Positions 55,252 to 59,459 of a stretch of 64,000 bases of DNA are shown piece by piece. Position numbers and translations under genes: made by a program. The DNA lies in assembly GCF_003334335.1 (NCBI RefSeq), contig NZ_QOWQ01000013.1; one strand, given 5' to 3'. The notes below the pieces were generated by a model, which was given only the letters and a program-made list of their open reading frames with translations, made no database searches and had not been told where the DNA came from. Each line of letters starts with the position of its first letter. The first letter of the stretch is position 1. This DNA is from Escherichia coli (GTDB lineage: Bacteria; Pseudomonadota; Gammaproteobacteria; Enterobacterales; Enterobacteriaceae).

Positions 55252-55566
55252 TTGGGGCCAAAACTGTCCATATCATAAATAAGTTACGTATTTTTTCTCA
55301 AGCATAAAAATATTATAAAACGACAAAAAGCATCTAACTGTTTGATATATAAATCATTTCTCTTGTAAATTAATTTCACATCACCTCCGCTAAATGTAAA
55401 GCTAACGTTTCTGTGTCTCGAAGCAACTTCCTCATTCTTCTCTCCAAAAACCACCTCATGCAATATAAAAATCTATAAATAAAGATAACAATAGAATATC
55501 AAGCCAACAAATAAACTGAAAAAGTTTGTGCGCGATGCTTTCCTCTATGAGTCAAAATGGCCCCAA
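55252..55566. promoter_or_regulatory. fimS: fimS invertible phase-variation switch carrying the fimA promoter; appears to be in the ON orientation
   Basis: 9-bp inverted repeats ttggggcca (55252-55260) and tggccccaa (55558-55566); minus-strand TTGAGA-N18-TATGAT promoter-like hexamers near the fimA-proximal repeat, pointing toward fimA. Confidence 0.8.
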
Positions 55567-56686: not shown

Positions 56687-57289
56687 CTATAAAACAGCGT
56701 GACGCTGTCGTCCTCTGGCCCTATCCCAGATGCCGTAAAAACGCCCTGCATTGCTGGCGGTATACCAGACAGTATGACGAATATTGCGATGCCCAAGATA
56801 ATCCTGGATAAGTCGCGTATCTATTCCCATATTCGCCAAAGCAAAACCACACGAATGGCGTAACATGTGCGGATGAATCTCCAGTGACAACCCGGCATTA
56901 CCACCGGAAGTCGAGATAATATGGTAAAACTGTTGCCGAGAAAGCGGATTCCCCTTACGCGATAAAAATACCCATTCGCTCTCAGCATGCGGGTACGAAG
57001 TACGGATACTCAACCAGTTTTTTAAAGCCTGAACTTCTTTGTTCAATAGCGGGTGCGTTGTTGAAAAGCCTTTTTTTAATCGATGGATATAGATACACTT
57101 TGCCTTAAGATCAATATCCGAAATCCTCAATCGACAAATTTCACTCGCCCGGAAACCATGAATAAAACAAAGCAAAGTCAGACAATAATTACGTGCTGCA
57201 TGAGGCCCGGTATTTGCTGCTTTAAGGAGTGATTCGATTTCACTATGGGTCAGGAAGTTCCTTTTTTTGTTATCAGCCTTATTCTTCAT
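56687..57289 (-). CDS. fimB: Tyrosine recombinase FimB (bidirectional switching)
   Basis: 200-aa FimE paralogue with HMLRHSCGF...LGHRNIRHTVWYT. Confidence 0.93.
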   Translation of the reverse strand: MKNKADNKKRNFLTHSEIESLLKAANTGPHAARNYCLTLLCFIHGFRASEICRLRISDIDLKAKCIYIHRLKKGFSTTHPLLNKEVQALKNWLSIRTSYPHAESEWVFLSRKGNPLSRQQFYHIISTSGGNAGLSLEIHPHMLRHSCGFALANMGIDTRLIQDYLGHRNIRHTVWYTASNAGRFYGIWDRARGRQRHAVL

Positions 57290-58302
57290 CGTTTTCCCTT
57301 ATAATTACAGACGCGCACTAGCTGTGCTGGGTTAGCAATAATCCAACATTTTAATCCTGATTATGTTTATAAAAGCGAACGTTTGCTTAATAACTAACGT
57401 AAGTGGACCAGTTCTTCTGAGTGAACTTAAATGGAGTAGCGATAGTTACTTATAATAACTTTGCCATACAAACGCCATGCTCTTGCATGCTATGTACCTT
57501 TATATATTTATAAATCTGATACGAATCGAATAATAACCCTCATCATTAATGCAACTAATCTTATCTATATATCATGTGATATGTTCTGTAACAAGTAAAA
57601 TCAACATAAAAAATTCAGCAAAATTTAATATTCGTTCAACTAGCCGTCTCACATATGACATTATTAGTCAACTGCATTTGCCACAAAATGGCTATTTCAT
57701 GGAACGCAGTAATTTCTTAGTGGCTATTATCATGCTAATTCTTAGATCCCTAGCGATTATTCCTGCCTGGTTCGTCAGCTTAGGCCATGAGATTGTTACA
57801 TTCCCTTTTATCCTGGAGATATGGGGGAACGCAGGCGACGCTTTTTCATCTACATCCGTTGGTAACTATGGCTTTGGTCACTACGACTTAAACCTTCCTC
57901 AATCACAGCTATTCGCCGGGCGATACGGCAAACAAACTAAGTGAAACATCATCCTGAAAACACCAACATCAACAAGCCTCTCCAGATCGACATCAGGAGT
58001 GACCAGTTACAAGCCACAAACCAAGAAACATATTTCATGATGAGAATTATACTCAGCCTGATGGCGGGTAAACACTTATTTTCACCAAGCTCACTGAGTT
58101 AGCTTGCAAAGCTTTCTTTGTTTAGATTCTTAATAAATTATTTACAAAACAGATTGTTAAAAGAAAACCTTTAGTTTTTGAAGACCAATGCAAGTGTTCG
58201 TCTGGCTTCACATGGCATCTGCTTCTTAGGAAAAGATCGACATATTTTGTGACACGAATTGCAAATCTGGTTTTGTTGTATGGATTGCGTGATTTTTGAT
58301 CT

Positions 58303-58322
58303 GGTATAACAGGTATAAAGGT
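58303..58322. promoter_or_regulatory. NanR operator-like GGTATA repeats in the nanC promoter region
   Basis: ggtataacaggtataaaggt: two exact GGTATA hexamers and a third degenerate copy. Confidence 0.55.
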
Positions 58323-58742
58323 GCACCACGATAGTCAATGAGACTGGGCATCTCGTAATCTATGGCAAACATCACTTCAGTTCTTTCTCATCGGGTGATG
58401 AAAACGCACTTCAGTCTGAAAGGAATATGAAAATGAGATCAACAGACACTCTATTTTATGACTCTGGGTAAAATGGATTGAGTAAGCGATATAGCTTACG
58501 AAAATTCAAATCAATTAAACATCAGCAGAGATTTTATACTCAGGTATTTAATCTGGCCCTCTGTTTATTTAAATAATGTGGAAAGAGATTTTTCACAGGA
58601 GATATTATACAAAAAATATAAAATACAGCTACCGGTTGCCAAAGACACTATAAGCCTGGCAAAAAAATATTACACAACATAAATGCTAATTGTTTATGCG
58701 GGCTTTGTATTGCTTTCTGTATCCTACAAATGAGTGAAATTT

Positions 58743-59459
58743 ATGAAAAAGGCTAAAATACTTTCTAGCGTATTATTACTGTGCTTTTCGTCCCCATTAA
58801 TTTCTCAGGCTGCGACACTGGACGTACGTGGTGGATATCGTAGTGGAAGCCACGCCTATGAGACTCGACTCAAAGTCAGTGAGGGATGGCAAAATGGATG
58901 GTGGGCAAGCATGGAAAGTAATACCTGGAATACCATTCATGATAATAAAAAGGAAAATGCCGCACTCAATGATGTTCAGGTTGAAGTTAATTACGCGATT
59001 AAACTTGATGATCAATGGACGGTGCGCCCGGGAATGTTAACGCATTTTAGCAGCAATGGCACACGCTACGGACCCTACGTAAAACTGTCCTGGGACGCGA
59101 CAAAAGATCTTAATTTTGGCATTCGCTATCGTTACGACTGGAAAGCTTACCGACAACAAGACTTATCTGGTGATATGTCTCGTGATAACGTTCATCGTTG
59201 GGATGGATATGTCACTTACCATATTAATAGTGATTTCACCTTCGCATGGCAAACGACGCTATACAGTAAACAGAACGATTATCGCTATGCAAACCATAAG
59301 AAATGGGCGACGGAAAATGCATTTGTTCTACAATACCATATGACGCCCGATATTACGCCATACATAGAATATGACTACCTTGACCGTCAGGGTGTTTACA
59401 ACGGCAGAGATAATTTATCGGAAAACAGTTATCGCATTGGTGTGTCATTTAAACTGTAG
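58743..59459 (+). CDS. nanC: N-acetylneuraminic acid outer-membrane channel NanC (KdgM family)
   Basis: ORF 58734..59459; start MKKAKILSSVLLLCFSSPLISQA at 58743 gives 238 aa; ends in typical beta-barrel C-terminal residues. Confidence 0.9.
   Translation: MKKAKILSSVLLLCFSSPLISQAATLDVRGGYRSGSHAYETRLKVSEGWQNGWWASMESNTWNTIHDNKKENAALNDVQVEVNYAIKLDDQWTVRPGMLTHFSSNGTRYGPYVKLSWDATKDLNFGIRYRYDWKAYRQQDLSGDMSRDNVHRWDGYVTYHINSDFTFAWQTTLYSKQNDYRYANHKKWATENAFVLQYHMTPDITPYIEYDYLDRQGVYNGRDNLSENSYRIGVSFKL

Follow-up and report, generated by a model that had tools for sequence, protein, structure and literature searches.

The fimB-yjhA(nanC) region of Escherichia coli K-12 (El-Labany 2003; Sohanpal 2004, 2007; Condemine 2005; McVicker 2011) is a textbook case of bacterial activation across several hundred base pairs, linking the host inflammation signals sialic acid and N-acetylglucosamine (GlcNAc) to the production of type 1 fimbriae, which are of major importance for colonisation and for virulence in the urinary tract. 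Here, we analysed the spacer between fimB and nanC in a 64-kb stretch of E. coli DNA (hereafter the window), in which the same genes flank the spacer in the same orientation as in K-12. NanR and NagC have been described to activate fimB from operators about 760–470 bp upstream of its promoter, with SlyA acting independently (PMC3173223). Binding of NanR in the nanC/fimB spacer was also detected by genomic SELEX (systematic evolution of ligands by exponential enrichment; PMC5934670), and two RpoD-holoenzyme peaks together with H-NS binding were mapped there (PMC3946193). Spacers of the csgD-csgB type are likewise long and AT-rich, with two RNA polymerase peaks, H-NS and many transcription factor sites (PMC3946193), but their regulators and physiological inputs differ, and the fimB-nanC spacer is about twice as long.

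We conclude, at a probability of roughly 0.93, that the spacer in the window is the E. coli fimB-nanC (yjhA) control region, present as an allele ~96% identical to that of K-12. The identity, position and conservation of the cis elements were established on the window allele itself, while protein binding and regulatory outcome are taken from the K-12 literature. The region is already known, and nothing found here changes its current understanding. The locus thereby serves as a positive control, in which a reader given only the sequence located and interpreted the region correctly; the comparative data place the published sites on this allele to the base and separate constrained from unconstrained parts of one of the largest E. 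coli intergenic regions. The flanking genes and the elements in question are as follows.

56687..57289, minus strand: fimB coding sequence (type 1 fimbria switch recombinase), an open reading frame (ORF) of 200 amino acids (aa), at the homologous position in the RefSeq records of K-12 and WP7-S17-ESBL-04
57290..57559, minus strand: putative fimB 5' leader of ~270 nt, from the predicted start at 57559 to fimB
57727..57738, minus strand: SlyA operator OSA1, TTAGCATGATAA, overlapping an H-NS site; 12/12 to K-12 (PMC3173223)
57742..57753, minus strand: SlyA operator OSA2, overlapping an H-NS site; 11/12, CTAGGGATCTAA here and CTAGGGACCTAA in K-12
58029..58051, minus strand: NagC operator ONC2 ('fimB2'), 22/23 to CATAATTCTCATCATGAAATATG (FITBAR Table 1, PMC3098098)
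58132..58159, no strand: approximate candidate for the IHF site, from IHF-consensus matches around the ONC1-ONC2 midpoint at 58146
58235..58238, no strand: GATC (Dam site) adjoining ONC1
58241..58263, minus strand: NagC operator ONC1 ('fimB1'), 23/23 to TGCAATTCGTGTCACAAAATATG (FITBAR Table 1, PMC3098098)
58298..58301, no strand: GATC (Dam site), 1 bp upstream of the NanR operator
58303..58322, plus strand: NanR operator ONR, GGTATA-ACA-GGTATA-AAG-GT(GCA), by sequence match; GGTATAACAGGTATAAAGGT
58743..59459, plus strand: nanC coding sequence (sialic acid outer-membrane channel), a 238-aa ORF with its ATG at 58743, named by RefSeq

Operators of the fimB-nanC spacer

The spacer extends over 57290-58742 (1453 bp) between the two divergent genes. 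According to RefSeq (K-12 and the best-matching record), fimB is followed by fimE and fimA on one side, and nanC by nanM and nanS on the other. An earlier annotation made from the sequence alone (the first-pass annotation) had described divergent fimB and nanC genes flanking ~1.4 kb of AT-rich non-coding DNA; its coordinates proved exact, and the gene names are those that RefSeq gives to near-identical records. As for AT-richness, the description holds overall, with 36.3% GC in the spacer versus 48.8% in the whole window, but not uniformly, as sequence of 31–35% GC is interrupted by a fast-evolving centre of 46% GC at 57740-58028. At least 80% of the spacer is matched by megablast in 5021 of 5426 complete E. 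coli genomes. The closest match is that of strain WP7-S17-ESBL-04 (99.9% identity), and for K-12 MG1655 the identity is 95.9%. The listed megablast records annotate nothing beneath the spacer, nor do the K-12 and WP7-S17-ESBL-04 RefSeq records, which were inspected in full, and no Rfam family is found in it at E <= 1. In two genome-wide association and biomarker papers that mention the spacer, nothing bears on mechanism.

Set against the characterised K-12 region, a comparison that the first-pass annotation had proposed, the NanR operator, ONC1 and OSA1 are identical and stand at the published spacings; the ONC1-ONC2 distance and the distances from the fimB start are equal as well. The spacer measures 1455 bp in the K-12 record. 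Differences between the two alleles are concentrated at 57740-58240 and include 1-bp indels at 57291, 57765, 57840 and 58610.

The NanR operator was recognised from its hexamers. GGTATA-ACA-GGTATA at 58303-58317 comprises two perfect repeats with a 3-nt gap, in agreement with the definition of a NanR operator as at least two GGTATA repeats spaced by 2–3 nt; the third unit, GGTGCA, departs from the repeat here as in K-12, so that 21/23 positions agree with the (GGTATA)3 form. In the whole window there is a single exact copy of the 15-mer GGTATAACAGGTATA, at a chance expectation of ~1e-4. The operator is the same in K-12 and invariant across ten lineages (94.6–100% identity), an alignment that comprises the window, K-12, WP7-S17-ESBL-04 and seven spread matches. 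The first-pass annotation, which had pointed to the string ggtataacaggtataaaggt, was thus right in assigning the GGTATA repeats to the NanR operator as described by Horne 2021 (PMC8012715) and Vimr 2013 (PMC3658417), with the refinement that only two repeats are full, followed by a degenerate one. At nanA, nanC and yjhB, the GATC sites lie no more than 5 bp from bound NanR (PMC5155068), and in the window the nearest GATC precedes the operator by a single base pair.

Of the two NagC operators, ONC1, in which a CRP-like box (TGTGAcacgaaTTGCA, 58248-58263) is embedded, is invariant in the ten lineages, and positions 58029-58050 of ONC2 show no variation, forming an island within the variable centre. 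The centres of the two operators, 58252 and 58040, are 212 bp apart, a distance reportedly given in the 2007 study of Sohanpal. The GATC adjoining ONC1 is said, after the 2004 study of the same author, to be protected by NagC from methylation in K-12. It is lost in two of the ten lineages, being replaced by TACC in one (L130) and by TATC in the other (L131), in which nanC is annotated as a pseudogene with an internal stop.

On the fimB side, OSA1 and OSA2 were placed at -179 to -168 and at -194 to -183 from the fimB start, respectively (McVicker 2011, PMC3173223). Judged from these published distances of both SlyA sites, the fimB transcription start (+1) in the window would lie at or near 57559. 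The hexamers TTGTTA-17-TATATA (57594..57566, minus strand; 8/12 consensus matches) have canonical geometry to this start, and the interval 57540-57639 contains a single variable column in the ten lineages. Counted from the predicted +1, ONR extends from -744 to -763, ONC1 from -682 to -704 and ONC2 from -470 to -492. Since the ONR and ONC2 distances match the published 'around 760 and 470 bp', they support a control region of the K-12 type. The claim of the first-pass annotation that sialic acid and GlcNAc signals feed into fimB expression agrees with the activation of fimB by NanR and NagC (PMC3173223), the published distances being reproduced to the base. The folding energy of the fimB leader is unremarkable (z = +0.47).

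Taken together with the K-12 literature, these elements suggest how the region may operate. In the module at 58235-58325, a GATC and ONC1 with its CRP-like box are followed by the probable nanC promoter, then by a further GATC and ONR. NanR bound to the two GGTATA repeats would repress nanCMS, and sialic acid (N-acetylneuraminic acid, Neu5Ac) would relieve this repression. The same bound NanR would activate the fimB promoter ~0.5–0.76 kb away, together with NagC at ONC1 and ONC2, the latter operator being 212 bp closer to fimB and IHF presumably introducing a bend between ONC1 and ONC2. By removing these activators, sialic acid and GlcNAc would then lower FimB, so that switching-on of type 1 fimbriae would be disfavoured. 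In turn, SlyA at OSA1 and OSA2 would counteract H-NS silencing of the AT-rich DNA near fimB. We infer that the window allele behaves like that of K-12.

The module has paralogues at nanX and nanA that keep its register. A paralogous module upstream of nanXY (yjhBC; L003:2977-3053) aligns without gaps to 58246-58322 over 77 bp at 83% identity, and the nanXY upstream region appears as a second match in some genomes. The nanA promoters of Citrobacter, Enterobacter and Pseudocitrobacter also align without gaps and in register with the nanC module. Common to nanC, nanX and nanA is a TGTGA-type box at a fixed distance ahead of T-GGTATA-ACA-GGTATA-AAG-GT, which in most of them follows a GATC. The third repeat reads GGTGCA at nanC, as opposed to GGTAT(A/G) at nanX and nearly all nanA sites (GGTACA in two). 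The start codon follows the beginning of the operator by 58 bp at nanA, but by 440 bp at nanC and ~430 bp at nanX. Only in the nanC module does the box double as a NagC site and the operator serve a second promoter 0.75 kb away. The nanA comparison draws on a scan for GGTATAACAGGTATA over 298 Gb of contigs, in which hundreds of chance matches are expected and which yielded nine usable enterobacterial nanA operators; no non-coli Escherichia locus is among the matches listed.

Constraint along the spacer and the nanC side

Counts of variable columns in the ten-lineage alignment divide the spacer into parts of very different variability.

fimB coding flank: 15 of 300 columns variable
57290-57739, fimB leader/promoter side: 26 of 450
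57740-58239, centre: 114 of 500
58340-58739, nanC side: 28 of 400
nanC coding flank: 12 of 300

The centre, at 22.8% variable columns, is ~4 times as variable as the spacer flanks (5.8–7%), and the adjacent coding sequence reaches 4–5%. Two further features, one of them already met as the GC-richer interruption, follow from this division.

57740..58028, no strand: fast-evolving, higher-GC central spacer (46% GC)
58323..58742, plus strand: conserved nanC-proximal stretch, probably a long nanC leader

A single variable column was found at 58240-58289. Of 5100 genomes, 4028 carry the 91-bp module of NagC site, promoter and NanR operator (58235-58325) at 100% identity; over the entire spacer, identity of 99% or more is seen in only 263 genomes. 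Constraint is strong on the distal NanR/NagC module as well as on the elements closest to either promoter, and the spacer centre is largely unconstrained filler. In K-12, the DNA that separates the fimB promoter from the distal operators is reportedly dispensable in large part, according to the 2007 study of Sohanpal.

Three genomes carry rearranged versions of the spacer. In one (L004, junction ~57552), an IS1 element is inserted at the fimB transcription start, and fimB, fimE and most of the fim operon are deleted. In another (L132, junction ~57941), an insertion of an IS5-family element breaks the spacer centre and the nanC side is replaced. The third (L133) has lost both SlyA operators by a 70-bp deletion (57722-57791).

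In the nanC-proximal part, the 420 bp of 58323-58742 vary in E. coli to an extent close to that of the adjoining coding sequence. At nanA the start codon lies 58 bp after the operator begins, which puts the nanA promoter in or just upstream of the operator; as the nanC module is homologous to nanA in register, the nanC promoter probably lies at ~58264-58320, and the nanC leader would probably measure ~420–440 nt. If nanC is transcribed from beside the operator, such a conserved leader might harbour an undescribed post-transcriptional element, or else the 46%-GC centre might be the relic of an old gene; we regard these proposals as unlikely. The stretch at 58323-58742 has no Rfam match and no long ORF, and the nanC-proximal 461 nt show no unusual fold energy (z = -0.21).

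Two further promoter-like sequences match motifs listed for this spacer by Shimada 2014 and read inward from either side of the spacer: TTGGCA-16-TATATT (58642..58615, minus strand) toward fimB and TCAACA-17-TTTAAT (57601-57629, plus strand) toward nanC.

Allele-specific changes and activation of fimB at a distance

Several observations weigh against assigning K-12-type control to the window allele. The published evidence for binding of NanR, NagC, SlyA and IHF was obtained with K-12 and not with this allele. A generic promoter and terminator scan returned sites no more numerous than in shuffled sequence and recovered neither promoter, the TTGTTA-17-TATATA fimB promoter being among those missed. 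At 58303-58322, the three perfect GGTATA repeats of the canonical nanA operator are not present. DNA with two repeats, (GGTATA)2, binds NanR with a dissociation constant (KD) of 25 nM, close to that of the three-repeat operator at nanA, although no more than two complexes form (Horne 2021, PMC8012715). Because of the degenerate third repeat and this limit of two complexes, at most two NanR dimers would be expected at the operator, versus three at nanA. Furthermore, two of the published sites carry changes specific to the allele. In OSA2, a G-to-A change at 57746 creates a new GATC (57745-57748) that eight of the ten lineages lack, and the last base of ONC2 (58051) is A here and G in eight of the ten. 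Lastly, the IHF site between ONC1 and ONC2 could not be placed by consensus matching: the best matches, AATAAATTATTTA at 58132-58144 (one mismatch) and 58147-58159 on both strands (two mismatches), fall in a variable stretch. IHF is said, in the 2007 study of Sohanpal, to bind midway between the two operators. The motif scan for NanR, NagC and IHF sites proposed in the first-pass annotation therefore located the NanR operator, ONC1 and ONC2, but did not fix the IHF site.

These changes would fit a module that in this lineage controls only nanC, the long-range activation of fimB having been lost or altered. Both substitutions, at 58051 and 57746, are private among the ten lineages to the window allele and its 99.9%-identical relative, and numerous differences from K-12 lie in the centre, some of them around the presumed IHF site. 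Nevertheless, ONR and ONC1 are intact and the 212-bp spacing of the NagC centres is kept. The changed OSA2 base is off the SlyA consensus in both alleles (PMC3173223). The end position of ONC2 varies among known NagC sites, with T, C and G all occurring (PMC3098098), and for this reason the change at 58051 is probably neutral. The reported dispensability of much intervening DNA in K-12 points in the same direction, and we consider a loss of fimB activation highly unlikely, favouring the K-12-type control region.

The 131-aa open frame and the fim switch

The six-frame translation places a 131-aa frame within the spacer, which the first-pass annotation had mentioned and thought unlikely to be real.

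57549..57944, plus strand: 131-aa ORF (ORF131), judged not to be a gene

The GC-richer centre, evolving at an approximately neutral rate, could in principle be a decayed old gene, with one FG-GAP-like beta-propeller blade left in residues 88–131 of ORF131. A phmmer search gave E = 4.3e-11 to a 545-aa protein (P0099) with FG-GAP-like repeats and an aerolysin/ETX domain. Each near-identical repeat of this protein can be aligned with residues 88–131, with identities reaching 17/39, and a hidden Markov model built from these repeats scored 22.0 bits at 57816-57938 (plus strand) versus a null maximum of 7.1. Yet, the phmmer E-value sums six near-identical and non-independent repeats, and the best single alignment, at 36.6 bits, stays ~8 bits under the level required for significance across the database. 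With a profile drawn from 120 other members of the family (249 repeats), the score fell to 9.7 bits, as expected for a match picked from a huge database. No second collinear repeat is present in any frame, Pfam returns nothing on ORF131 even at E <= 10, and the repeat family of P0099 is mainly fungal. We therefore rejected the similarity of the C-terminal 44 residues as a selected chance match, with its E-value inflated by the repeats and its score dropping with the family profile; a gene relic of this kind is very improbable, and the centre is better read as filler within the control region.

Whether ORF131 itself could be a lineage-restricted protein-coding gene was judged from its length, variation and relatives. 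In shuffled sequence, frames of at least 131 aa turn up at a rate of 0.45% (mononucleotide shuffles) or 0.85% (block shuffles), so the length is unusual for the local composition (P ~0.005–0.009); the frame is full length in four of the ten lineages, and some automated annotations label it 'hypothetical protein'. In the other six, K-12 included, it is cut to 73, 88 or 105 aa. The -1 indel at 57765 and the +1 indel at 57840 re-frame ~25 central codons, leaving a shifted frame that is open in some strains and has an unrelated middle, and one lineage carries a 12-bp insertion. Variable sites are distributed over codon positions as 10:15:17, versus 2:1:8 in nanC and 2:0:10 in fimB, without third-position bias, and nonsynonymous to synonymous codon changes number 7:3 and 9:3. 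ORF131 has no Pfam or NCBIfam match, and all 93 matches in a search of 5.8 billion proteins come from the same E. coli locus, with lengths of 79–207 aa. No Shine-Dalgarno sequence precedes its ATG, which falls at +11 of the opposite-strand fimB transcript, and RefSeq PGAP did not call it in K-12 or WP7-S17-ESBL-04. Database versions of 195 aa result when the TGA stop is translated as Trp. With every coding test that was run negative, as the first-pass annotation had anticipated, a genuine gene is exceedingly unlikely; ORF131 appears to be a fortuitous open frame, antisense across the fimB promoter.

Metagenome callers have deposited entries of 194–199 aa for the spacer (P0001, P0002, P0010 and P0048), in which the TGA at 57942-57944 is read as Trp, with clusters of up to 1076 members. 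These 'proteins' are database noise.

Outside the spacer, the fim switch fimS is located at 55252-55566, bounded by 9-bp inverted repeats (TTGGGGCCA). The element has the opposite orientation in K-12 MG1655, in WP7-S17-ESBL-04 and in two metagenomic or other contigs. Within it, a TTGAGA-18-TATGAT promoter (55301..55272, minus strand), which we take to be the fimA promoter, points toward fimA. Given the inversion relative to K-12 and a promoter facing fimA, the assembly therefore captured the fim switch in the phase-ON orientation.

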